A DNA stretch of 64,000 bases, taken from positions 39,168 through 103,167 of the forward strand of contig CAYGJS010000003.1 in the NCBI GenBank assembly GCA_964350435.1, written 5' to 3'. Positions 2,636 through 29,242 of this stretch are shown here, one piece after another. Numbering within the stretch: position 1 is the first letter of the stretch; each line of letters opens with the position of its first letter. The translations under genes and the position numbers were made by a program. Source of the DNA: an uncultured Micavibrio sp. (GTDB lineage: Bacteria > Pseudomonadota > Alphaproteobacteria > Micavibrionales > Micavibrionaceae). The notes under the pieces are model-generated. The model saw nothing but the letters and a program-made list of their open reading frames with translations, made no database searches and had not been told where the DNA came from.

Positions 2636-4744
2636 ATGCAAGAGCTTATCCGATCTCGAATATACAGCGTGCTCGCGGAAAACAGGACGCAGATTTTTTT
2701 GCTGACCCCTGTGTTTATGGGTATGGGGATTGCGGTTTATTTTTCACTGCGGTTTGAGCCGCCCTTTTATTTGGGCGCGGGTTTGGCGGCGTTGTGCCTC
2801 GTTGGCGTGTGGTTAACGCGCTCGCGTGATGCTTTGCGGATTGCGGTTTTGTTTTTGCTGTGCGGGTCTTTGGGGTTCATGGCGGCGCAAATAAGAACCA
2901 GCTTGATGCACTCACCAATTTTGGAGCGTGAGATTAAGACGACCGGGCTTGAAGGTCTTATTTTAGAGGTTGAAAATCTGGGGCTGGAGCAGGGGCAGCG
3001 GATTGTGCTTGGGGATTTGAGCATTGAGCGGCTTGCGCCAGAAGATACGCCGCGCCGCATCCGCATTAAAATTCGCAAGGATCAGGATTTGCAAACGGGG
3101 CAGCGGGTGAGTGTTTTGGCGGGGCTTAATCCGCCTGCGCCGCCGGCTTATCCTGGGGGCTTTGATTTTCAGCGTTATATGTATTTTAAGGGAATTGGCG
3201 CGATTGGTTTTAGTTATGGCAGGGTGGAGGTGCTTGAACCTGCCCGGCTTTCCGGCTTTGCGATGCGGGTAGAGGGGCTGCGTGCGCATGTGGGCGAGCG
3301 TATTTTACAAGTTTTGGTTCCGGAGCAGGCGGGCGTTTCAGCGGCTTTGATCGTCGGGCAGCGCGGCGCGATATCGGAAGAGGATCAGGAGGCGATGCGC
3401 GCTTCGGGTCTTGCGCATATGCTGGCGATTTCGGGTTTGCATATCGGATTGTTTTCGGGGGTGGTGTTTTTCTTTTTGCGGCTTTTATTGGTGAGCGTTC
3501 CTTACTGCGCGTTGAACTGGCCGGTGAAGAAGATTGCGGCTTTGGCGGGAATTGCGGCGGCGGTGTTTTATATGGTGCTGGCGGGTTCGACTATTCCCAC
3601 CCAGCGGGCGACGCTTATGAGCGGGATTGTGCTGTTTGCGATATTGCTTGATCGCACGCCGCTGTCCATGCGTTTGGTGGCCTTTGCGGCGGTATGTGTT
3701 TTGGCGATTGCGCCGGAAAGTTTGATGTCGCCGAGCTTTCAGATGTCGTTTTCTGCCGTGGCAGGATTGGTTGCGTTTTATGAATGGGCGGCGCCTTGGC
3801 TTCGGGCGCAATATCGGCAGAGCGGGGTTTTGAGGCGGGTGGGTTTATATGTAGCAGGGGTTTTTGCAACCACCGTGATTGCGACATTTGCGACTGCGCC
3901 GTTTGCGCTGTTTCATTTTCAGCAGCTCGCGCTGTATGGGGTGCTGGCGAATATTTTGGCGATGCCTGTGCTGACCTTTATTGTGATGCCGCTGTGTGTT
4001 TTGGCCTATGCGTTGATGCCGTTTGGGCTTGAGGGCTGGGTGCTGCCGATTATTGGGCATGGTGTGGATTTGATTTTGAAGATTGCGCATTTTGTGGCGG
4101 GGCTGGAGCATGCTTCGCTTAAGCCTGCGGCCTTGTCATTCGCTGCGTTTATGTTTTTTGTGGGCGGGGTGTTGGTGCTTGTTTTGCTTCGCGGCTTTGC
4201 GCGGGGGCTTAGTCTTGGGTTTTTTGTGGCGGCAGGCCTCGCGCTTTTGGTTCAGGTTCAGTCCATTATGCTGATTTCCTCTGATCTGAATTTGGTGGCG
4301 TATCGGGACAGAGGCGGCGCATTTTATGTGACGAATACGCGAAAGGATAAATTTACGCGCGGAATTTGGGAGCGGCGGTTTGGGCTGGAGGAAGGAGCAG
4401 GGGTTTTGTGGCCGAAAGAGGGGCAGGCGGGGGATGCGGCGTGCGGCGAGGGTGGTTGCCGCATTGAGACGCCTGAGTATAAGATTTCAGTGATCGAGCA
4501 AGAGCAAGCTTTGGCCGAGGAATGCGGCTGGGCGGATTTGGTGATTGTTCGAAAGGGGTATGATTTGAAGTGCGGCGATCAGGATAGCCCAAAGGTGATT
4601 GATCGTAAAAACGCCAAAGCCGAGGGGCCGTTCGGGGTTTATATTGGTGGTCCTTTGACGCTTCGATCTGTGCAAGCAGAGCGCGGCGTGCGTCCTTGGG
4701 TGGCGGGCACGGCGCGGTTTAATGGTAAGAGCGCATCAGACTGA
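2636..4744 (+). CDS. comEC: ComEC/Rec2 family competence (DNA internalization) membrane protein
   Basis: Long polytopic membrane ORF (track 2564..4744). ComEC core pattern [16 protein letters not shown]. The ATG at 2636 is preferred over the TTG at 2564, which overlaps the gltX start. Confidence 0.8.
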
Positions 4745-17668: not shown

Positions 17669-19015
<1,347 letters not shown>

Positions 19016-19099
19016 AAAAAATTGAATCATTTGAATCGCTTACGTGGATTGTTCTTGATTTGTACATGTTAAAGCACTGAATCAGAATGATTTTTTGAC

Positions 19100-19447
19100 T
19101 TGTCCACAGAATCAGTATGTGATTCACTACTTGTTATGAACTCAATGTCTTCACATTCCATGCTTCTTAAAAATCACATGTTCTTCTTTATATGTGTGAT
19201 CTTGAGCCTTTATTTCGGATATCACGTCCTTCAGGGGGAGCGGGGGATTCTTAGTAATATGTCGCTCAATCGTGAAATAGAAACATTGTCGCAAATGAAG
19301 ACATCTCTGGAAGCCGAGAGGGCCGCGTTAGAGAAAAAAGTTGTGATGATGCGACCTGGAAGTGTGGATAAAGACTTGCTTGAAGAGCAGGTTCGCAGCA
19401 CGCTTGGGTACAGATATAGCAGCGAAGTGACTGTTTTAAGCCATTAA
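19100..19447 (+). CDS. ftsB: septum formation initiator (FtsB/DivIC family) protein
   Basis: Single TM segment followed by a coiled coil (LSNMSLNREIETLSQMKTSLEAERAALEKKV). Conserved eno-ftsB-pdhA order. The start is uncertain (TTG 19100, ATG 19136 and further downstream in-frame ATGs). Confidence 0.7.
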   Translation: MSTESVCDSLLVMNSMSSHSMLLKNHMFFFICVILSLYFGYHVLQGERGILSNMSLNREIETLSQMKTSLEAERAALEKKVVMMRPGSVDKDLLEEQVRSTLGYRYSSEVTVLSH

Positions 19448-19590
19448 ATTGCGCGGTCGTTCAGTTTTGTAAATTTTCCTATCATTTCAATGTGTTGCAC
19501 TGCACAATCTCAGGATTTCGCTGGAGTGTGACTTGAAAATGCGCTATCAAGTCATATCAACTATGGTCAGTTTTTAAATAAGGGGTATCC

Positions 19591-20640
19591 GTGTCCGCCG
19601 CGAAATCAAAAAATACTCAATCCAAGAAGCAGGCTTCCTCGAAGGGTGTTTCAACAAAATCGAATGTTTCCACTGAGCCTACGGTAGAGGATCTCAAAAA
19701 ATATTACCGCGATATGCTTCTTATTCGCCGCTTTGAAGAAAAGGCGGGGCAGCTCTACGGGATGGGGTTGATTGGCGGGTTTTGCCATTTGTATATCGGG
19801 CAAGAGGCTGTGGTGACGGGGATTACTTCGGTGAATGAGCCGCAGGATACGGTTGTGACTGCCTATCGCGATCATGCGCATATGCTGGCCTGCGGGATGG
19901 AGCCGCGCGGCATTATGGCGGAATTGACGGGTCGTGAGGGCGGATATTCGCGCGGTAAGGGTGGATCGATGCATATGTTTTCCAAGGCAGAAGGGTTTTT
20001 CGGCGGCCATGGGATTGTCGGCGCGTCGACGGCGATTGGCACAGGGCTTGGATTTGCGCATAAATATAAGGGCGATAATGGCGTTGCTGTGGCCTATATG
20101 GGGGATGGAGCGTCTAACCAAGGGCAGGTCGCGGAATGTTATAACATGGCCGCGCTTTGGGATTTACCAGTTTTGTTTGTGATCGAGAATAATCAATACG
20201 GGATGGGAACATCCGTTAAGCGGTCTTCTGCGGGGACTTTGTACCGGCGCGGGGAGGGATATGGTATTCCCGGCGAGCAGGTGGACGGCATGGATATATT
20301 CGCTGTTCAGGCCGCTGCGCGTCAGGCGCTTGATTATATTCGCACCGGAAACGGGCCTTATATTTTGGAAGTGATGACGTATCGGTATCGCGGGCATTCT
20401 ATGTCTGACCCTGCGAAATACCGCACGAAAGAAGAGGTTGACGGCATGAAGCAGGATCGTGACCCGATTACGATGATCAAGGATATGCTTCAGGCGCGCG
20501 GGGTTGCCGAGGCGGATATCAAAGAGATTGATAAAGAGATTAAAGAGATTGTGAATGATGCGGCGAGCTTTGCGCAAGAATCCCCCGAGCCTGCGGCGGA
20601 AGAATTATGGACCGATGTCTTGGTTGAGGAGCGTGTGTAA
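19591..20640 (+). CDS. pdhA: pyruvate dehydrogenase E1 component alpha subunit
   Basis: 349 aa. TPP-binding pattern GDGASNQG...NNQYGMGT and YRYRGHSMSDP. Confidence 0.95.
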   Translation: MSAAKSKNTQSKKQASSKGVSTKSNVSTEPTVEDLKKYYRDMLLIRRFEEKAGQLYGMGLIGGFCHLYIGQEAVVTGITSVNEPQDTVVTAYRDHAHMLACGMEPRGIMAELTGREGGYSRGKGGSMHMFSKAEGFFGGHGIVGASTAIGTGLGFAHKYKGDNGVAVAYMGDGASNQGQVAECYNMAALWDLPVLFVIENNQYGMGTSVKRSSAGTLYRRGEGYGIPGEQVDGMDIFAVQAAARQALDYIRTGNGPYILEVMTYRYRGHSMSDPAKYRTKEEVDGMKQDRDPITMIKDMLQARGVAEADIKEIDKEIKEIVNDAASFAQESPEPAAEELWTDVLVEERV

Positions 20641-22080
20641 ATGCCAGTGAATATTTTAATGCCGGCGTTGTCGCCGACAATGACCGAAGGGAATTTGGCC
20701 AAGTGGTTGAAGGCTGAAGGTGACCGTGTGGATGCGGGGGATGTGATCGCCGAAATTGAAACCGATAAGGCCACCATGGAAGTTGAAGCTGTGGATGAAG
20801 GTATTTTGGGTAAAATTCTTGTCGCCGAAGGCACTGAAGGCGTAGCGGTGAATGATGTGATTGCGGTATTGCTGGAAGAGGGCGAGAGCGCGAATGATAT
20901 TGGCGAATATAAAAAGCCCTCACCCAACCCTCTCCCTGAGGGAGAGGGCAATGAAGCTTCGCCCTTAGGCGTTAGCGGAGTGGGCGAGGGGGGCGTTCAA
21001 CAACCTCAAGGGGCTGTGGTAGAAAATCGCGACATTTTATATGCGCAAGGGGTGGTGACACCGCCGCCGCCGTTTGACGAGGCGAGTTTTACCGAAACCA
21101 AGCCGATGACTGTGCGGGATTCTTTGCGTGATGCGATGGCTGAGGAAATGCGCGCCGATGATAGCGTGTATTTGATGGGCGAGGAAGTTGCGGAGTATCA
21201 GGGGGCGTATAAGGTTTCGCAAGGATTGCTCGATGAGTTCGGCGCAAAGCGCGTGATTGATACGCCGATTACCGAGCATGGATTTGCGGGTTTGGCTGTG
21301 GGGTCGGCGATGAGCGGCCTTAAGCCTATTGTTGAATTTATGACGTGGAATTTCGGCATGCAGGCGATTGACCATGTGATTAACTCGGCGGGGAAAACGC
21401 TGTATATGGCGGGCGGGCAGCTTGGGTGTTCGATTGTTTTTCGCGGCCCGAATGGCGCGGCCAGCCGTGTGGGCGCGCAGCACTCGCAGTGTTATGCGTC
21501 CTGGTATGCGCATGTTCCGGGTTTGAAGGTGGTTGCGCCTTGGTCGGCAGCGGATGCAAAGGGTTTGATGAAGGCGGCGATCCGCGATCCGAACCCGGTC
21601 GTGTTTTTGGAAAATGAAATGCTGTACGGCGAAACATTTGATGTGCCAACCGCCGAAGATTTCGTGATTCCTCTGGGGCGCGCGAAGATTGAGCGTGCGG
21701 GCGCGGATGTGACGATTGTTGCGTTTTCTATCATGGTGGGCAAAGCCCTGAAAGCGGCGGAGAAATTGGCGGAGATAGGAATTGATGCGGAAGTGATTAA
21801 CCTTCGCACCATTCGTCCGCTTGATCGGCATACGATTTTGGAGAGCGTCAAGAAAACCAACCGCATTGTGACCTGCGAAGAGGGCTGGCCATTCGCAGGG
21901 ATCGGCGCGGAGATTGCGGCGTTGATCGGCGAGCATGCGTTTGATTATCTGGATGCGCCGCTGGCGCGCGTACACGCCGCCGATGTGCCTTTGCCGTATG
22001 CGGCGAATTTGGAGGCTTTGGCCTTGCCGCAAGTCGATCAAATACTCCAAGCAGCGAAGAAGGTTTGTTATGCCGATTGA
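20641..22080 (+). CDS. pdhB: pyruvate dehydrogenase E1 component beta subunit with N-terminal lipoyl domain
   Basis: 479 aa. Lipoyl domain ([13 protein letters not shown]), Pro/Gly-rich linker, transketolase-like pyrimidine-binding and C-terminal domains. Confidence 0.95.
22070..22078. repeat. left copy of the direct repeat ATGCCGATT (putative target-site duplication)
   Basis: ATGCCGATTgA at 22070-22080 against ATGCCGATTaA at 22568-22578. Confidence 0.7.
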
Positions 22081-22567
22081 TTGTTCAAACGCGGAGATAC
22101 AGAGAAGCGGAGTGGTCTTATTGTAATGTCCAGTGTGCTTCGTAAGTATGATGATTTTTCATCTGATATGAATGTTCTGTCGGGCGCGATTGTTGATTGT
22201 GCGTTTCAGGTTCATAAAGAGCTTGGCCCCGGGTTTCTTGAAATGAATTATGAAGATGCCTTTGTTTATGAACTGGGATTAAAGGGTTTAGCATTTGAGC
22301 GCCAAAAACCTCTCAAAATTCCGTATAAAGAGGTTGTTCTTCATTCTGAGTTTCGTTTTGATCTGTTGGTTGAGGGAAGGGTTTTGGTTGAACTGAAAGC
22401 TGTGGAGAAAATTCATCCTGTTCATCAGGCTCAGATTTATGCCTATTTAAAAGCTACGCGGATTGAGCTGGGGCTTTTGATTAATTTTAATGTTCCACTT
22501 ATTAAGGATGGAATTGGCCGTTATGTGCTCCGAAACTCTGAAACTCCGCGTTTAAAAAAGGAAAATC
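22079..22567 (+). mobile_element. putative inverted-repeat-bounded cassette carrying GxxExxY gene 1
   Basis: Flanked by the ATGCCGATT direct repeat. Imperfect terminal inverted repeats AAACGCGGAGaTaCAGAG (22087-22104) and CTCTGaAaCTCCGCGTTT (22536-22553). CGGAG/CTCCG subterminal repeats are spaced 16 nt apart at both ends. The interior looks more AT-rich than the pdh genes. Confidence 0.5.
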
Positions 22568-22578
22568 ATGCCGATTAA
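22126..22578 (+). CDS. GxxExxY family protein (PD-(D/E)XK nuclease-like fold)
   Basis: GPGFLEMNYE (GxxExxY) and DLLVEGRVLVELK (D...ExK). ATG at 22126. The track ORF starts at the TTG at 22081. The last 15 aa are encoded by the right inverted repeat plus the duplicated junction. Confidence 0.85.
   Translation: MSSVLRKYDDFSSDMNVLSGAIVDCAFQVHKELGPGFLEMNYEDAFVYELGLKGLAFERQKPLKIPYKEVVLHSEFRFDLLVEGRVLVELKAVEKIHPVHQAQIYAYLKATRIELGLLINFNVPLIKDGIGRYVLRNSETPRLKKENHAD
22568..22576. repeat. right copy of the direct repeat ATGCCGATT (contains the pdhC start codon)
   Basis: Identical 9-mer to 22070-22078. Confidence 0.7.
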
Positions 22579-23842
22579 TGTGACGATGCCGGCGCTTTCG
22601 CCGACGATGACGGAAGGGACTTTGGCGAAATGGCTGAAGGCCGAAGGGGATAGGGTTGAGGCCGGTGACGTGATTGCCGAAATTGAAACCGATAAGGCGA
22701 CGATGGAAGTCGAGGTCGTTGATGAAGGGGTTTTGGGCAAGGTTCTCGTGGCGGCTGGCACCGAAGGAGTGGCCGTGAATGCGGTGATTGCGGTTTTGCT
22801 GGAAGACGGCGAGAGTGCGGGTGATATAGGTGATGCGTCATTGCGAACCGCAGGTGAAGCAATCCAGCCCAAAAAGGAAAAAGAGGTTGAGGTTGGTAAT
22901 GGATTGCCGCGTCGCGAAAATGCTCCTCGCAATGACGATTTTGATAAAGGGGCGCGTATTTTTGCATCGCCTTTGGCGAAACGGATTGCGGCGGATAAGG
23001 GAGTTGATCTCTCAAGTCTTAAAGGCTCCGGGCCGCGTGGGCGGATTGTGAAGGCGGATGTTGAGAATGCGAACGCGGGGGGCATTTCTGCTCCTGCTCC
23101 TGCGGTGGTTTCCTCTAAGGCTTTGCCAGAGGGGGCAAAGACCAATATTTACGGCATGGCTTATGTTGAGAAGCCGATCAATAATATTCAGAAAATTACC
23201 GCGAAACGCTTGCTGGAATCCAAAACTACGGTGCCGCATTTTTATCTGACGGTTGAGTGCGATCTTGAAAATTTGCTCGCTGCGCGTTCGGATCTTAATG
23301 AAGCCGCAAATGGTGCGTTCAAGTTATCTGTGAATGATTTTATCATCAAGGCCTCGGCGATGGCGCTGAAAGCCTATCCAGCGGCAAATGTGAGCTGGCA
23401 GGACACATCGGTGTATCAATATTTGACATCCGATATTTCGGTAGCGGTGGCAACGCCAAACGGTTTGATCACCCCGATTATCCGCAGCGCAGAGGAAAAG
23501 GGATTGCGCCAGATTTCCGATGAAATGAAAGCCTTGGCGGGGCGGGCTCGTGAGGGCAAGCTTAAGCCTGAAGAATTTCAGGGGGGCGGTTTTTCTATCT
23601 CGAACCTTGGGATGTTCGGGGTGAAGGATTTTGCCGCGATTGTGAACCCGCCGCAGAGCTGCATTCTGGCTGTTGGGGCGGGCGAGAAAATGCCGCGCGT
23701 TGTGAACGGCGAGATTGTCATTCGTACGGTGATGAATGTTACGCTTTCTACGGATCACCGCACGGTTGATGGCGCGGTTGGCGCGGAGTGGCTGCAGTTC
23801 TTTAAACGGTATATTGAAAATCCAGTGAGTATGCTGGTTTAA
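22568..23842 (+). CDS. pdhC: pyruvate dehydrogenase E2 (dihydrolipoyllysine-residue acetyltransferase)
   Basis: 424 aa. Lipoyl domain, E3-binding domain (ASPLAKRIAADKGVDL), catalytic domain with the DHRTVDG motif. Confidence 0.95.
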   Translation: MPINVTMPALSPTMTEGTLAKWLKAEGDRVEAGDVIAEIETDKATMEVEVVDEGVLGKVLVAAGTEGVAVNAVIAVLLEDGESAGDIGDASLRTAGEAIQPKKEKEVEVGNGLPRRENAPRNDDFDKGARIFASPLAKRIAADKGVDLSSLKGSGPRGRIVKADVENANAGGISAPAPAVVSSKALPEGAKTNIYGMAYVEKPINNIQKITAKRLLESKTTVPHFYLTVECDLENLLAARSDLNEAANGAFKLSVNDFIIKASAMALKAYPAANVSWQDTSVYQYLTSDISVAVATPNGLITPIIRSAEEKGLRQISDEMKALAGRAREGKLKPEEFQGGGFSISNLGMFGVKDFAAIVNPPQSCILAVGAGEKMPRVVNGEIVIRTVMNVTLSTDHRTVDGAVGAEWLQFFKRYIENPVSMLV

Positions 23843-23844
23843 AA

Positions 23845-24296
23845 TTTTTAACACGAAGCGAATAAGATGCACGAAGCTGTTCAGCGTTTAGAAACACCTT
23901 CTTTTGATTTTGAGCCATTATCAAGAGAGATTGTTGATTGTGCTTTCCAAATTCACCAGACTATAGGGGCTGGTTTGTTAGAGGGTGTTTATGAAGATTG
24001 TTTTGAGATTGAGCTGAAAAAGCGCAATATCGCTTTTGAGCGTCAAAAAATAATTAAGGTGGAATATGCAGGCGTTTTTATTCCGACAACATACAGGTTG
24101 GATTTGGTTGTCGAGGGCAGAATTATTGTTGAGTTGAAAAGCGTTGAAAAAATTATACGGGCTCATCAGGCTCAAATTCTGACGTATATGAAAACTTCTG
24201 ATATTAAAATCGGGCTTATTATAAATTTTGGAGATCCATATTTTAAATCAGGCGTTAAACGCTTCGTGTTATAACTTCTTTGCTTCGTGTTAAAAA
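23845..24296 (+). mobile_element. putative inverted-repeat-bounded cassette carrying GxxExxY gene 2
   Basis: Perfect 15-bp terminal inverted repeat TTTTTAACACGAAGC (23845-23859) / GCTTCGTGTTAAAAA (24282-24296). A nested second pair is CACGAAGC (23870-23877) / GCTTCGTG (24261-24268). Confidence 0.45.
23867..24274 (+). CDS. GxxExxY family protein (PD-(D/E)XK nuclease-like fold), paralog 2
   Basis: 135 aa. GAGLLEGVYE and DLVVEGRIIVELK. By eye, about half of the aligned residues are identical to the 22126..22578 product. Confidence 0.85.
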   Translation: MHEAVQRLETPSFDFEPLSREIVDCAFQIHQTIGAGLLEGVYEDCFEIELKKRNIAFERQKIIKVEYAGVFIPTTYRLDLVVEGRIIVELKSVEKIIRAHQAQILTYMKTSDIKIGLIINFGDPYFKSGVKRFVL

Positions 24297-24310
24297 AAGG
24301 AATTGTTATT

Positions 24311-24853
24311 ATGATCAATCGAAGGCCAATCGTCGGTGTTATGGGTTCGCATGAACATGAGTGGGAAGATTTTGCTGATCCTGTTGGGGATTTGCTTGCG
24401 CGGCGCGGGTTTAATCTGCTGACCGGTGCGGGCGAGGGCGTGATGACCTGCGTGGCGCGTGCGTTTACCCAAGTAAAGAACCGTGAGGGTGTGGCGATCG
24501 GGATTTTGCCGGCGGTGGATTACAAGGGGCAGAATTTGAATGAAGCGGAGTATCCTAATCCTTATATCGAAATTCCGATGATTACGCCGCTGTCTATGAA
24601 AGCGCAGAGTGATATTATGCCGTTTTCCCGCAATTTAACGAATGTTATGACGAGTAAGGCCTTGATTATTTTACCGGGATCGCATGGGACGAAGAACGAG
24701 GTGTCGCTTGCTCTTATGTATGACAAGCCAATGATATTGTTTGGGCCGGAGCACGCGTTTGATAGTTTTCCAGAGGAGCCCCTGCGCGCTGAAGACATTA
24801 CGCATGTGGCGCAGTTTCTGGATGATGTTTTCGGGAAGGATGAAGATGAGTGA
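24311..24853 (+). CDS. TIGR00725/LOG-family (SLOG superfamily) Rossmann-fold nucleotide-binding protein
   Basis: IVGVMGS...LLTGAGEGVMTCVARAF...ILPGSHGTKNEVSLAL, matching the LOG-type GxGxxG...PGGxGTxxE pattern. ATG at 24311 with an AAGGA RBS. Confidence 0.7.
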   Translation: MINRRPIVGVMGSHEHEWEDFADPVGDLLARRGFNLLTGAGEGVMTCVARAFTQVKNREGVAIGILPAVDYKGQNLNEAEYPNPYIEIPMITPLSMKAQSDIMPFSRNLTNVMTSKALIILPGSHGTKNEVSLALMYDKPMILFGPEHAFDSFPEEPLRAEDITHVAQFLDDVFGKDEDE

Positions 24854-25442
24854 GGTGCCGCTGGAATTTAACGCTGTCGGCGCAGAGAAGAAGTATCAAA
24901 AGCTGATTTGGGCGGGGGCTTTGTTTGTTGTCCTTGGCGCAGCGATGATGTTTGCTACGTTTATGTATTTCCATGGACAAGGGGCGTATGAAGAGGATGC
25001 GCCGCAGACGATCTATCCGATGCTGCCGCTGTTGCTTATTTTTATTCCGTTGTATGGATTGCGGATTTTTGGACAAGGCTTTGCGGAGCTCAGGCTTTTC
25101 AAGCGCACGGAACTCCGCGGTCTTAAGCTTGATAAAGATATGATCTCCGGTCCGGTTTTGTTATTGGAAGGGGTTTACCGGGAGAGGCTTTTGCAAAAAA
25201 AGGCACCGATTTTTTATTTTGAATGGGATGATATTCATAATTTTATTCTTGAACCTGTAAGAGGGAGTAAGAGTTATGGCTCGCCGCCATATTATAAAAT
25301 TACATTCAAGGAGCGCAGTGAGAAGGCGGAGAGCAGCTGTTTCATTATGCGCGAGTGTTTTAAAGAGCACGAAGCGGAAATTGTTAAATTTGTGACCAAG
25401 CGTCTGGGTAAGGCGCATGTGGTCAATAATGACCCAGTTTAA
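24840..25442 (+). CDS. hypothetical 2-TM membrane protein with a soluble C-terminal domain
   Basis: Two hydrophobic helices (LIWAGALFVVLGAAMMFATFMYF; IYPMLPLLLIFIPLYGLRIFGQGF). The start (ATG 24840 or 24846) overlaps the stop of the upstream LOG-family gene. The long track ORF from 24741 is an upstream extension. Confidence 0.55.
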   Translation: MKMSEVPLEFNAVGAEKKYQKLIWAGALFVVLGAAMMFATFMYFHGQGAYEEDAPQTIYPMLPLLLIFIPLYGLRIFGQGFAELRLFKRTELRGLKLDKDMISGPVLLLEGVYRERLLQKKAPIFYFEWDDIHNFILEPVRGSKSYGSPPYYKITFKERSEKAESSCFIMRECFKEHEAEIVKFVTKRLGKAHVVNNDPV

Positions 25443-25463
25443 ATTCTAAAAAAGAGCGAGAGT

Positions 25464-26852
25464 ATGAGCGATAAAAATTTCGATGTGATTGTGATTGGCG
25501 GTGGACCCGGGGGGTATGTTGCGGCTATTCGTGCGGCGCAGCTTGGCATGAGGCCTTGTGTGATTGAGGCCAATCATTTGGGAGGGATTTGTTTGAACTG
25601 GGGATGCATCCCGACAAAGGCGCTTTTGCGGAGCAGTGAGGTGTATCACCTTGCACAGAACGCGGAAGCTTATGGTTTAAAAATCAGTGGTTTAGAGTTT
25701 GATCTTAAGAAAATAGTTGAAAGGTCACGCGGCGTCGCAAAACAGCTTTCCGGCGGGATCGGGCATTTGCTGAAGAAAAATAAAGTTACGGTTTTTGATG
25801 GGTTTGCGAAGCTTGAGGGCAAAGGCGTTGTGAGTGTTGACGGCAAGGAGAAACTGACGGGCAAGCATATCATTATCGCCACGGGTGCGCGGGCGCGGAT
25901 TTTGCCGGGCCTTGAGCCGGACGGCAAATTTGTCTGGAGTTATAAGGAGGCGATGGTTCCTGAAGCCATGCCGAAAAAGCTCTTGGTGATTGGATCGGGC
26001 GCGATCGGGATTGAGTTCGCTTCGTTTTATCGCACTATGGGCGCTGATGTGACCGTTGTGGAGATGATGGATCGGATTGTGCCTGTCGAGGATGCGGAGA
26101 TTTCGGGGTTGCTGGAGAAGGCCTTAACCAAACAAGGCATGAAGATTATAAAGAGCGCGAAAGTGACGAAGCTGGATAAGGGCAAGGATGAGGTCACGGC
26201 GCATATTGATATCAATGGAAAAATCGAGAAGCATAATTTTGATCGCGTAATTTCCGCTGTTGGGATTGTGGCCAATACTGAAGAACTGGGGCTTGAGAAC
26301 ACCAAGGTTAAGCTTGACCGCGGGCATATTGTCACTGATGGTTATATGCAAACCGATGAGCCTAATGTTTATGCGATTGGGGACGTGACGGGCGCGCCTT
26401 GGCTGGCGCATAAAGCCTCACATGAGGGGATTATCTGTATTGAAAAGATCGCGGGTCAAAAAGACGTACACCCCATGGTGAAAGAGAATATTCCCGGGTG
26501 TACTTATTGTCATCCGCAAGTTGCGAGCGTTGGTCTGACCGAGGCGGCGGCCAAGGAGCGGGGCTATAAAATTAAAGTCGGGCGCTTCCCGTTTATGGGC
26601 AATGGCAAAGCGATTGCTTTGGGCGAGCCTGAAGGGCTTGTGAAGACGATTTTTGATGAAAAAACCGGAGAGCTGCTCGGCGCGCATATGATTGGCGTGG
26701 AAGTGACGGAGCTCATTCAAGGGTTTGTGATCGGCAAAACCATGGAGGCGACCGAGGCGGAGTTCATGCATACTATTTTCCCGCATCCCACGCTTTCGGA
26801 GATGATGCATGAGAGCGTACTTGACGCGTATGGGAAAGTGATCCATTTCTAA
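25464..26852 (+). CDS. lpdA: dihydrolipoyl dehydrogenase (E3)
   Basis: 462 aa. FAD motif VIVIGGGPGGY, redox-active disulfide GGICLNWGCIPTK, and HPTLSE near the C-terminus. Confidence 0.96.
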   Translation: MSDKNFDVIVIGGGPGGYVAAIRAAQLGMRPCVIEANHLGGICLNWGCIPTKALLRSSEVYHLAQNAEAYGLKISGLEFDLKKIVERSRGVAKQLSGGIGHLLKKNKVTVFDGFAKLEGKGVVSVDGKEKLTGKHIIIATGARARILPGLEPDGKFVWSYKEAMVPEAMPKKLLVIGSGAIGIEFASFYRTMGADVTVVEMMDRIVPVEDAEISGLLEKALTKQGMKIIKSAKVTKLDKGKDEVTAHIDINGKIEKHNFDRVISAVGIVANTEELGLENTKVKLDRGHIVTDGYMQTDEPNVYAIGDVTGAPWLAHKASHEGIICIEKIAGQKDVHPMVKENIPGCTYCHPQVASVGLTEAAAKERGYKIKVGRFPFMGNGKAIALGEPEGLVKTIFDEKTGELLGAHMIGVEVTELIQGFVIGKTMEATEAEFMHTIFPHPTLSEMMHESVLDAYGKVIHF

Positions 26853-26855
26853 GTC

Positions 26856-27821
26856 ATGACCTATAACCCTGAACTTCTTGATAAAGCCAAGCGGCACCCT
26901 GAAAAGCAGAAAAATCCGGATCGGCCTGCGGGGCGAAAGCCTGAGTGGATTCGCGTGCCCGCGCCGCAGGGGCAGAAGTATCAGGAAACTTACGACATAG
27001 TGAAGAAGCACAAGCTGACCACTGTTTGTGAAGAGGCGGGGTGTCCGAATATCGGTGAGTGCTGGCAGCAGAAGCATGCGACATTCATGATTATGGGCGA
27101 GGTCTGTACACGGGCGTGCGCTTTTTGCAATGTGGCCACAGGCAAGCCAGAGGCGCTGGATAAGCTTGAGCCTTTGCGTGTGGGCGTGGCTGTGAAGCAA
27201 ATGGGTTTGAAGCATGTGGTGGTGACATCTGTTGATCGAGATGATCTGGCCGATGGCGGCGCGGATCACTTTGCCAAGACAATTCAGGGTATTCGTATGA
27301 AGGCGCCCGAAACGACGATCGAGATATTGCCGGGGGATTTTCGTGGCAATAAGGCGGATTGGGATACCGTGATATTGGCGCGTCCCGACGTGTTCAATCA
27401 TAATCTTGAGACGGTGCCGCGGCTCTATCCGACTATTCGCCCCGGGGCGCGGTACTTTCGTTCACTCCGTTTGCTGGAGCGGGTCAAGGAGCTTGATCCT
27501 TCAATGTTTACGAAATCCGGCCTTATGGTGGGATTGGGGGAAACAAAAGAAGAGGTGGGCCAAGTGATGGATGATATGCGCGCGGCGGGGATTGATTTTA
27601 TTACGATCGGTCAATATCTGCAGCCGACGCCGAAGCATGCGCCGGTCATGAAATGGTGGACACCTCAGGAGTTTGAAGAACTTGCCAAGATGGCGAAGCG
27701 TAAGGGGTTTTTGATGGTGTCTGCTACGCCGCTGACGCGCTCTTCGCATCATGCGGGGGATGATTTTGCGCAGCTTAAAGCGGCGCGCGATGCGCAGCTT
27801 GCCAAGCTGGCGGCTGAATAA
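26856..27821 (+). CDS. lipA: lipoyl synthase
   Basis: 321 aa. [12 protein letters not shown] and radical-SAM CTRACAFC cysteine clusters. Confidence 0.97.
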
Positions 27822-28276
27822 TGCTGAGGCATATCGAGCAAAAGAGGCTGCCGTATAGCCCGCAGCAGATGTATGATCTGGTGGTTGTGGTTGATCAATA
27901 CAGCGATTTTTTGCCTTGGTGCGTTGCGAGCCGCATAACCAAACGTGAAAGCGCGGCGGTTTTTTATGCGGATCTGGTGGTGGGGTATAAAATGTTTCGC
28001 GAGCGGTTTTCATCCAAGGTCATGGTGGAAGAGGGGCGCAGCATTCATATCGAATATTTGAAGGGACCCTTGAAGCATTTGAAGAACCATTGGCGGTTCA
28101 GTGAAGCGGAAAACGGTTCATGTACAATAGACTTCAGTGTAGAATTTGAATTTAAAAACATAGCTTTACAGGGCTTAGCTCAAGTATTTTTTAAGGAGGT
28201 CATCCATAGAATGGTGGCGGCGTTTGAACAGCGGGCGATTGAGGTGTATGGTGAAACGTCTTTGCGAGGCGCGTAG
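27821..28276 (+). CDS. SRPBCC family protein (COQ10/RatA-like polyketide cyclase/START fold)
   Basis: 151 aa. Conserved position directly after lipA. START-like pattern (YSPQQMYDLVVVVDQYSDFLPWC). Confidence 0.75.
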   Translation: MLRHIEQKRLPYSPQQMYDLVVVVDQYSDFLPWCVASRITKRESAAVFYADLVVGYKMFRERFSSKVMVEEGRSIHIEYLKGPLKHLKNHWRFSEAENGSCTIDFSVEFEFKNIALQGLAQVFFKEVIHRMVAAFEQRAIEVYGETSLRGA

Positions 28277-28288
28277 TAACGAGGCAAT

Positions 28289-29242
28289 CTATTTGACGGA
28301 CTGGATTGCTTCGCGTTCGCTCGCAATGACAGGCTTTTGGGTTTCGCCGTTATAGCCTTGGTATCTGAATGATTTTTTGATTTTTTCGCCTTGCAGAGTC
28401 TGGAATTCGGTTTCAATAGAGCGGTCGAGGCGGATTTTGTCCAGACCCGAGAGATGAACGATGCCGAGCGGTTCATGCGGCAGGAAGATTTCGACAAAAC
28501 GTTTGTTTGCGCTATCCCAATAGGGCGTGAATTCGCACAGCCACTGCGTCCACGCGGGTAGAATTTCGACCGGATAATTTTCCAGATAGGTCAAAATGCC
28601 CAGGGTCAGTTGTTCGGCGGTGAAGACTTTGCCGCGTTTTATGGCTTCGATGACAAGGGTTTGCCATCGTTCCCAATGCGGCGCATCGCCGCTCAGGGCA
28701 AAGGCCCCCGCGTTCAGGACTTGGAAGGGCAGAAGCTCTTTTGCGGTTTTGGTGCCGAAAGCGCTAAGCGCATTAGAGTAGTAAAACCCGCGGATTTTAA
28801 GCGGCAGGGCGCCCAGCCATTTGACGCGGATTTGTTTTTTATAGCAGCGGTCGGCTTGCACTGTTATGGCAAGTTTGCCGCGATTTGCGCCTTCGAGGTA
28901 CAGGTCAATGGCGCGCCAATCTTGCAGCCATGTGTCGGCGTCCATCCAGATATAGGTTTTATAACCCGGGAAGATTATCGGAATGAAAGGGCGGCAAACG
29001 CAGGCTTTGAGGTATTCGCCTTTGAGTTTATGGAGGGCGATTTTGTCCGGCCAGTCGGGATTGACGATATGATCGACGAGTGGTTTTAAGGTTTCGATTT
29101 GCTCAGGTTTGAGGCCTGCATCAAGGATACAGATATCGAAGTCTTGGGATTGGGTGAAGCTGCGGATGGAATGCAGCCATTCCAGAAGGATCGGGAAATA
29201 ATTGCTGTCGCAGCCGGAAACGAAGGTTTTGCTGTTGGTCAT
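28289..29242 (-). CDS. putative nucleotide-diphospho-sugar (GT8-like) glycosyltransferase
   Basis: The ATG at 29242 (MTNSKTFVSGCDSNY) overlaps the cinA stop as ATGA. DxD-like WMDADT and LNAGAFAL motifs. The family assignment is tentative. Confidence 0.45.
   Translation of the reverse strand: MTNSKTFVSGCDSNYFPILLEWLHSIRSFTQSQDFDICILDAGLKPEQIETLKPLVDHIVNPDWPDKIALHKLKGEYLKACVCRPFIPIIFPGYKTYIWMDADTWLQDWRAIDLYLEGANRGKLAITVQADRCYKKQIRVKWLGALPLKIRGFYYSNALSAFGTKTAKELLPFQVLNAGAFALSGDAPHWERWQTLVIEAIKRGKVFTAEQLTLGILTYLENYPVEILPAWTQWLCEFTPYWDSANKRFVEIFLPHEPLGIVHLSGLDKIRLDRSIETEFQTLQGEKIKKSFRYQGYNGETQKPVIASEREAIQSVK

Follow-up and report, generated by a model that had tools for sequence, protein, structure and literature searches.

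In a 64,000-nucleotide (nt) stretch of DNA from an uncultured Micavibrio sp. (contig CAYGJS010000003.1; hereafter the window), the spacer that follows the pyruvate dehydrogenase gene pdhC is filled by a unit, at positions 23845-24296, in which a small gene of the GxxExxY family lies between two complementary arms. We refer to this unit as cassette 2; a sister unit, cassette 1, lies between pdhB and pdhC. The gene-in-hairpin design around this family recurs in many bacterial groups and appears to be undescribed. We propose that it marks a promoter-less, evolutionarily mobile nuclease cassette whose arms would loop the open reading frame (ORF) out of an operon's messenger RNA (mRNA), an account that we consider about evenly poised between right and wrong. 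We describe the unit as a selfish ORF cassette that is bracketed by an inverted repeat and is similar to an intervening sequence (IVS) or a REPtron, the latter being a nuclease-type gene (RAYT) set between inverted copies of a repetitive extragenic palindromic (REP) sequence.

A single imperfect stem encloses the GxxExxY gene downstream of pdhC

The preliminary description of this DNA reported a perfect inverted repeat of 15 base pairs (bp) around the gene with a nested inner pair of 8-mers, and both hold when sequences and coordinates are checked: TTTTTAACACGAAGC (23845-23859) and 24282-24296 are exact reverse complements, CACGAAGC occurs again at 23870-23877, and GCTTCGTG occurs again at 24261-24268. 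The 452-bp unit also occupies the whole spacer, as described, between the pdhC stop codon at 23840-23842 and the ATG of the next gene at 24311. Rather than separate repeats, the 15-mer and 8-mer pairs are pieces of a single imperfect stem of ~33 bp, in which 23845-23877 pairs with 24261-24296.

All features of the two window cassettes lie on the + strand. The 5′ arm of cassette 2 (23845-23877), defined by repeat search, fold and duplex energy, is invariant in four orthologous loci and consists of three ~9-nt units: an outer AACACGAAG (23850-58), a decayed middle GAATAAG (23860-66) and an inner CACGAAG (23870-76). In the 3′ arm (24261-24296) the order is reversed, with an inner CTTCGTG (24262-68), a middle CTTCTTT (24275-81) and an outer CTTCGTGTT (24283-91). 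The window arms are therefore a decayed three-unit form (CACGAAG / GAATAAG / CACGAAG versus CTTCGTG / CTTCTTT / CTTCGTG), and because the middle unit has decayed, an outer pair and a nested inner pair were seen; the nesting that was reported is what is left of tandem repeat units.

The stem reaches into the gene and up to both neighbors. The ORF (23867-24274) encodes 135 amino acids (aa), and its start codon (23867-69) and stop codon (24272-74) are both within the stem. The purine-rich middle unit of the 5′ arm occupies the Shine-Dalgarno position, and the inner 3′ unit, CTTCGTG, provides the codons R-F-V of the conserved KRFVL C-terminus. At the upstream junction (23840-23844) the pdhC stop codon, TAA, is 2 nt 5′ of the stem; at the downstream junction (24296-24313) an A-run, a Shine-Dalgarno-like AAGGAA motif and the ATG of a SLOG/LDcluster4 gene lie just beyond it.

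These repeats are not random, in agreement with the preliminary description. With up to two mismatches allowed, the 15-mer has 3 matches in the 64-kb window, all at cassette 2, against 0.15 expected, and 0/100 shuffles reached 3. The 8-mer alone is not significant window-wide, with 6 matches versus 2.4 expected and 6/100 shuffles reaching 6. The arm-to-arm duplex has a predicted energy of -37.7 kcal/mol, compared with -10.3 +/- 2.9 kcal/mol for 1000 shuffled 3′ arms, none of which was as good, and the RNA fold of a 476-nt stretch is closed by the arm stem (z = -4.2). Of all inverted repeats in the window with copies up to 1.2 kb apart, the brackets of the two GxxExxY genes supply the pair with the highest complementarity (91%) and one of the two longest (32 nt). 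The cassette unit is also distinct in composition, with a GC content of 0.34-0.38 versus 0.52-0.58 in the pdh genes.

Several other identities for cassette 2 were tried and rejected. Neither a sigma70-like promoter on the + strand nor an intrinsic terminator was found there, so a cassette with its own promoter or terminator was set aside; the unit itself is no intrinsic terminator, as none was called and an A-run, not a T-run, follows the 3′ arm. Rfam returned no match in the window region 19000-28000, even at E-values up to 5, and related loci gave sub-threshold microRNA hairpin models only, which disposes of a known RNA family. A generic intergenic repeat of the source genome was also rejected: the two cassettes account for 5 of the 7 matches to the 9-mer AACRCGRAG (R, purine) in 64 kb.

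A sister cassette carries different, compensated arms

Cassette 1 has the same design in the pdhB|pdhC spacer. Its 5′ arm, AAACGCGGAG-ata-CAGAG-aag-CGGAG (22081-22115), lies directly 3′ of the pdhB stop codon (22078-80); its GxxExxY gene (22126-22578) encodes 150 aa and is 49% identical to that of cassette 2; and its 3′ arm, CTCCG-aaa-CTCTG-aaa-CTCCGCGTTT (22525-22559), is followed by AAAAAAGGAAAATC and the pdhC ATG at 22568. The arm sequence differs from that of cassette 2 and the differences are compensated, with a predicted arm duplex of -34.7 kcal/mol. When 8 alphaproteobacterial cassettes are folded together with RNAalifold, the terminal helix is the sole helix that links both ends, and two stem positions are fully compensatory between cassette lineages, AU in 4 sequences and GC in 4. 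The suggestion in the preliminary description that pairing could loop out the whole ORF is thus what both models predict, the RNA fold of the element and the RNAalifold consensus.

In the closest relative in the genome collection (L004), the gap between pdhB and pdhC is 5 nt only. Cassette 1 alone is flanked by a 9-nt direct repeat, ATGCCGATT, at 22071-22079 (the last pdhB codons) and 22568-22576 (the pdhC start). The repeat is missing in L167, where a cassette also occupies the pdhB|pdhC junction. It may date from an ancestral state in which pdhB and pdhC overlapped, the insertion having duplicated the overlap.

The bracket and its repeat units recur across the family

To see how general this arrangement is, we sampled 80 diverse metagenome loci encoding GxxExxY proteins 40-52% identical to the query, and for each locus tested how well the 110 nt preceding the conserved core pair with the final 24 nt plus 90 nt of downstream sequence, comparing a locus with itself and with others. 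Over 81 loci, the mean duplex energy is -64 kcal/mol when the 5′ and 3′ flanks come from one locus, versus -45 kcal/mol for cross-locus pairs (Wilcoxon p = 7e-12), and in 41 of the 81 the own pairing is better than all ten cross-controls. In 43 loci, a scan for inverted repeats identified arms of 22 nt or more on either side of the ORF, separated in most cases by 375-600 nt. The same bracket is present in records from cultured bacteria, with the GxxExxY gene (X) in the arrangements radA|X|FAD-dependent protein in Bacteroides finegoldii (NZ_OY725952.1, ~15.2-15.6 kb) and fabD|X|fabG in Sphingomonas parapaucimobilis (NZ_CP155749.1, ~482.8-483.3 kb). The repeats belong to the GxxExxY gene and are not a generic intergenic repeat, since a bracket surrounds most of the 80 sampled genes.

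The arms follow a common grammar. An outer T(T)CACC is followed by about three tandem units of 9-10 nt with the core C-R-C-R-R-A-G, and the 3′ arm is mirrored and ends in GGTGA(A). Examples of units are CACGAAG, CACAGAG, CACGGAG, CGCAAAG, CGCGAAG, CACCAAG and even CACAGATTA. The unit sequence is specific to each contig, and both arms change together. In some cassettes a further local stem-loop, such as CTTGCCGGTAAGAGACCGGCAAG, lies immediately interior to each arm (L091 ~300-380 and 790-820; L098 ~195-240 and 650-700); the window cassettes have none.

Cassettes sit co-oriented in short intercistronic spacers

Placement was counted over the 43 bracketed loci. The neighboring gene is co-oriented with the cassette in 33/36 cases upstream and 33/39 downstream; the gap from the upstream stop codon to the 5′ arm has a median of ~9 nt, and mostly a few to ~40 nt separate the 3′ arm from the next start. 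Within the cassette, the median ORF start is 17.5 nt inside the 5′ arm, and the stop precedes the 3′ arm by 11 nt. As in the window, a typical cassette is thus inserted into a short intercistronic spacer in the orientation of its neighbors. Its neighbors (114 Pfam families in 63 proteins) are mostly housekeeping or metabolic genes, including trp, his, pnt, 2-oxoacid dehydrogenase and MutS, and share no theme. A functional tie to pyruvate dehydrogenase was rejected on these grounds: the neighbors elsewhere are unrelated operons, and the pdh association is limited to one alphaproteobacterial clade.

No target-site duplication is visible at cassette 2, as the preliminary description noted, and the family behaves likewise: among the 43 loci the longest flank-to-flank direct repeat averages 4.7 nt, versus 4.5 nt in the cross-locus control.

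Junctions are filled, empty or marked by a solo hairpin

No GxxExxY gene was found near 80 other alphaproteobacterial pdhC loci within the available flanks of up to 6 kb; the best pdhC match in the genome collection is 66% identical. Among close relatives the junction varies. Those of cassette 1 (69-77% identical) share its arms and lie at pdhB|pdhC in L167 and at pdhA|pdhB in L168 and L170, and the middle unit of these three covaries, CAGAG:CTCTG versus CGGAG:CTCCG. A relative of cassette 2 (64% identical; the contig of P0010) is located after pdhA. The empty junctions examined in relatives have no arms, and relatives at other junctions carry the same arms; from this we conclude that the arms come together with the ORF.

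Short spacers elsewhere on the same contigs (L088, L090, L101, L145, L153) hold hairpins that lack the ORF, consist of the contig's own units and have loops of 6-170 nt. Of these solo hairpins, 12/15 have the polarity of the genes. Solo hairpins are also present at the pdhC|lpdA junction of L168 (7001-7068) and L167 (3797-3882), that is, where the window has a full cassette; the one in L168 consists of TGAATCGCGAAGGCGCGAAGACACGAAG, a 13-nt loop and a complementary 3′ arm. The junction 3′ of pdhC thus exists in three states: filled (the window and L084-L086), with an ORF-less hairpin (L167, L168) and with no hairpin (L170, L004).

One alphaproteobacterial clade (L167, L168, L170, L084-L086 and the P0010 contig) has pdh-operon cassettes at pdhA|pdhB, pdhB|pdhC and pdhC|next gene. 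Two of these three junctions immediately precede pdhB and pdhC, whose lipoyl-domain starts are nearly identical, and the choice of junction could reflect a target preference or recombination between these starts.

Cassette 2 is an old resident under purifying selection

The three closest homologues of the cassette 2 product (P0002, P0004 and P0006; 79, 74 and 72% identical in a codon alignment) are all encoded directly after pdhC (L084-L086). The gene that follows the cassette differs, being SLOG in L084 and lpdA in L085 and L086. At the same loci pdhC is 79, 70 and 64% identical, and the amino-acid divergence of GxxExxY tracks that of pdhC. The ratio of nonsynonymous to synonymous substitution (dN/dS) among the GxxExxY orthologues is 0.09-0.18, at saturated synonymous distances (dS 1.1-2.1). 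The arm units are invariant in the four orthologous loci (the window and L084-L086), including the synonymous positions of AAA-CGC-TTC-GTG. To judge from the orthologues, the low dN/dS and this invariance, the cassette in this lineage is an old, stable and vertically inherited resident whose protein and arms are both under purifying selection, and no fresh insertion. The preliminary description had set vertical conservation with repeat-free flanks against its own proposal; the conservation is there, at the same junction in diverged relatives, but the flanks are not free of repeats, the arms being invariant.

The gene encodes a minimal nuclease domain

The cassette 2 product matches TIGR04256 with 140.2 bits (cut-off 35; E 3.4e-41) and PF13366 (PDDEXK_3) with 141.5 bits (cut-off 22; E 1.9e-41). 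The motifs are intact in the 135-aa product: G36-x-x-E39-x-x-Y42, D79, E89-x-K91 and Q103xxxY107. In an alignment of 41 sequences E39, Y42, D79, E89, K91, Q103 and Y107 are invariant and G36 is nearly so. D...ExK followed by QxxxY is a motif set that we take to be that of RecB/Cas4/lambda-exonuclease-type nucleases, and by its sequence the product is a minimal RecB/Cas4-like PD-(D/E)XK nuclease. An AlphaFold2 model has a mean predicted local distance difference test score of 89; its Foldseek matches in the Protein Data Bank are all weak and of the generic fold, with Cas4 SSO0001, MGME1, RecE and lambda exonuclease the best, and no solved structure was found that matches by sequence.

The family is large, with 17,498 clusters at 50% identity (E <= 1e-3), and plasmid carriage is rare (8/72,556 records). 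Searches of the PHROGs phage families gave no match and the PADLOC defence models a weak Cas4 similarity and nothing more, on which grounds membership in a phage or a defence system was rejected.

Many representatives of ~250-295 aa (P0240-P0253 and similar) hold two GxxExxY domains; these may be genuine fusions, or may arise where one ORF reads through two cassettes in tandem. The N-terminal extensions of some annotated GxxExxY proteins (SPRSHEEHEA, HHGDTENTEKGRR) are translated hairpin arms, and in cassette 1 the C-terminal tail LRNSETPRLKKENHAD (LRNSETPRL..., window 22531-22578) is the translated 3′ arm. Such arm-derived extensions and tails are probably artefacts of start or stop sites, or recent read-through. 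The cassette design accounts for these recurring annotation artefacts: the HEEHE- and TEDTE-like N-termini, the LRNSETPRL tails and the fused double-domain proteins would be translated arms or read-through.

In-frame palindromes near the cassettes

The window has other palindromic elements. In pdhC, the linker after the lipoyl domain contains an in-frame element of ~102 nt (22836-22937; CGTCATTGCGA...GAAGCAATCCA ... TGGATTGC...TCGCAATGACG), reminiscent of Rickettsia palindromic elements inserted in frame; half of a related element, GGATTGCTTCGCGTTCGCTCGCAATGACAGG, is found at 28304-28334 in the spacer after a gene ending at 28276. In pdhB, the E1-beta linker after the lipoyl domain has an in-frame palindrome, CCCTCTCCCTGAGGGAGAGGG (20918-20955), and comparable ones lie between genes in other alphaproteobacterial loci (L032 7910-7976, L048 7373-7477). 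In L099, an in-frame palindromic repeat, AAAATGGGGACAGCGCCCTATTTTT and its complement (~4160-4225), lies inside the ORF of a 788-aa membrane protein, with a second copy of this type at 3420-3444, just after the GxxExxY cassette.

Discussion

How might an operon tolerate such a unit? We propose that the cassette, being co-oriented, would be transcribed by read-through from the pdh operon. In the polycistronic RNA the arms would then pair as a ~33-bp stem that loops out the whole ORF, hides its start and stop codons, and leaves only a few nt between the stop codon upstream and the ribosome-binding site downstream. Because the stem would close the insertion off and leave the upstream stop near the downstream ribosome-binding site, the operon would be insulated and could tolerate an insertion of 450 nt. 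The stem would probably be cut by RNase III, a step that we include because of the parallel with the ORF-bearing intervening sequences of 23S ribosomal RNA (rRNA). Over evolutionary time the arms and ORF would move as one unit, and the ORF-less solo hairpins would be derivatives or partners of the cassette. For the nuclease, a natural guess is a role in homing to empty spacers or solo hairpins, or in retention of the cassette.

Five observations weigh against this account. If a 33-bp stem buries the start codon, production of the nuclease is hard to explain. On the sense strand the arms show a non-significant excess of G:U wobbles over A:C mismatches (32 versus 20, p = 0.13), an asymmetry too small to tell selection on RNA from constraint on DNA. 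The conserved TTCACC...GGTGAA ends, the helical-turn periodicity of the units and the invariance of the arms point to sequence-specific recognition by a protein, which RNase III does not need. Strong long-term purifying selection is unusual for a purely selfish gene. Finally, no tandem-unit solo hairpin or further copy of the cassette was found within the 64-kb window, which gives no sign of current activity in the source genome.

The main rival, possible in our view and yet rather doubtful, is a DNA-level mobile element of REPtron-like or insertion sequence (IS)-like kind, or one like a miniature inverted-repeat transposable element (MITE). Here the arms would be iterated binding sites of the encoded nuclease, which would copy or home the cassette by cutting in or close to the arms, or in hairpins or cruciforms that the arms form in single-stranded DNA; the solo hairpins would be non-autonomous copies, and pairing in RNA a by-product. 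Much of what we observe suits such an element: ends conserved across phyla and units with a 9-10-nt period, contig-specific arms common to ORF-bearing and solo copies, arms that accompany the ORF to new junctions, filled and ORF-less alleles at one junction, intact catalytic motifs, and an arm sequence that is invariant among orthologues beyond what pairing requires. It is harder to reconcile with the lack of a target-site duplication and of a transposase of any known class, and a RecB-like nuclease domain of 125-135 aa has no known strand-transfer activity. Co-orientation and the tight intercistronic fit would be unexpected for a DNA transposon unless insertions were filtered by selection, the solo hairpins keep gene polarity in 12 of 15 cases, and recent movement is not evident in this lineage. 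The DNA-level and RNA-level accounts are compatible with each other.

An unlikely alternative is that the cassette is a domesticated host feature that no longer moves. The hairpin would be a REP-like element for intercistronic mRNA processing or stabilization that sets the expression ratio of pdhABC to the downstream genes, and GxxExxY a beneficial, low-level repair or defence nuclease. Functionally unrelated operons around other cassettes, close relatives at differing junctions and the 80 other alphaproteobacterial pdh loci without a cassette argue against this, and the family's rarity on plasmids, its empty PHROGs search and its weak Cas4 resemblance among defence models do so as well; that same Cas4 similarity can be counted in its favor, along with the long vertical retention, a dN/dS of about 0.1, invariant arms, and a hairpin with or without an ORF at the pdhC-downstream junction in six related genomes. 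Lastly, a functionless chance inverted repeat, or a by-product of coding constraint at the ORF ends, has next to no likelihood: the inner 3′ unit does overlap the conserved KRFVL codons and the 8-mer by itself does not stand out, but the arms are largely outside the ORF, and the 15-mer and stem shuffles, the family-wide recurrence of flank pairing and the compensatory positions rule chance out.

Returning to the RNA-level account, the closest known parallel to the cassette is one that the preliminary description did not consider, the ORF-bearing 23S rRNA IVS of Coxiella burnetii and Leptospira. In Coxiella the IVS measures 428-444 nt, with a 28-bp terminal stem cut in its middle by RNase III, a 14-kDa ORF in the loop and low GC (PMC4990558). 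Both are units of ~430-450 nt with complementary termini, a stem of ~28-33 bp and a single ORF for a protein of ~14-15 kDa in the loop; both have a GC content below the host's, are embedded in an essential host transcript (for the cassette, by presumed co-transcription), and are sporadic across lineages yet vertically stable within one (PMC4990558). Despite these similarities, there are clear differences. Cassette 2 lies in an operon spacer between pdhC and a SLOG-family gene, whereas the IVS is in helix 45 of 23S rRNA; the cassette ORF matches TIGR04256/PF13366 only, whereas the IVS ORF encodes the S23p four-helix bundle (TIGR02436, PF05635); and the cassette arms are tandem CRCRRAG units with conserved TTCACC ends. 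Excision by RNase III has been shown for IVSs and, by analogy, would extend to the cassette.

Locus L132 bears on this parallel. At 1282-1945 it has a gene for a TIGR02436 four-helix-bundle protein (1371-1733) within a 24-nt inverted repeat, CGAATTTCGAAATCCGAAACAAAT and its complement, outside rRNA; the gene adjoins a response-regulator gene and lies ~570 nt downstream of a GxxExxY cassette. Because this gene is likewise bracketed outside rRNA, the parallel with the IVS is strengthened.

The preliminary description had likened the repeats to the ends of small transposons or to REP sequences and bacterial interspersed mosaic elements. This analogy is apt because ORF-less hairpin copies exist; it fails in that cassette 2 is not a recent or obviously active transposon. 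Intercistronic REPs affect mRNA stability. As in a REPtron, a nuclease-type gene lies between inverted copies of a genome-specific repeat, and ORF-less copies are intergenic and often intercistronic; this dispersed ORF-less repeat is seen on the five contigs with solo hairpins and at the L167/L168 junction, with none in the window. Unlike a REPtron, the cassette has no Y1/HUH (IS200/IS605-like) transposase, its matches being to PD-(D/E)XK nucleases only, and unlike a REP, a single arm is not palindromic: the arms pair across the ORF, and the solo copies are arm-loop-arm hairpins.

With IS elements, MITEs and homing endonuclease genes the cassette shares terminal inverted repeats around one ORF, ORF-less derivatives that retain the ends, a nuclease gene, patchy site occupancy and housekeeping neighbors. 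It differs from IS elements and MITEs in having neither a target-site duplication nor a DDE, serine, tyrosine or HUH transposase, from homing endonuclease genes in belonging to no known homing-endonuclease fold family, and from all of these in its co-oriented, intercistronic placement and long-term purifying selection. In read-through transcripts of IS10 and IS50, a terminal repeat pairs with the translation start region and masks the start, a form of fold-back inhibition; there the pairing is short-range and at the 5′ end only, whereas the cassette would pair both ends of the whole element. We assign the cassette to none of the IVS, REPtron or IS families, because the defining features of each were looked for and are not present.

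In the full-text literature, a search that left subscription journals mostly outside, we found no earlier description of GxxExxY hairpin cassettes; the texts available name the family and do not treat its flanks. The accessible literature on the IVS protein family likewise yielded nothing on such cassettes in mRNA contexts.

These results turn a large, anonymous and widely annotated family, GxxExxY/PDDEXK_3, into a defined genetic element with a conserved hairpin, a home in operon spacers and ORF-less relatives. RNase III processing, translational masking and action of the nuclease on its cognate arms are testable, and Bacteroides finegoldii and Sphingomonas parapaucimobilis are cultured carriers. 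The finding also bears on an old question, the origin of ORF-bearing rRNA intervening sequences. More tentatively, and with more doubt than conviction, we suggest that GxxExxY cassettes could be an unrecognized class of operon-embedded mobile element across phyla, in which one hairpin would serve both as a DNA or single-stranded DNA substrate, through which the nuclease copies the cassette into spacers or solo hairpins, and as an RNA device that removes the cassette structurally and by RNase III. If true, the 23S rRNA IVS would, together with the four-helix-bundle cassettes, be a special case of intervening sequences that can reside in any transcript, and a family of at least 17,000 protein clusters would gain a function. 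Long stems in housekeeping operons such as pdh, fab, trp and his may be common, and may shape how their mRNAs are processed.

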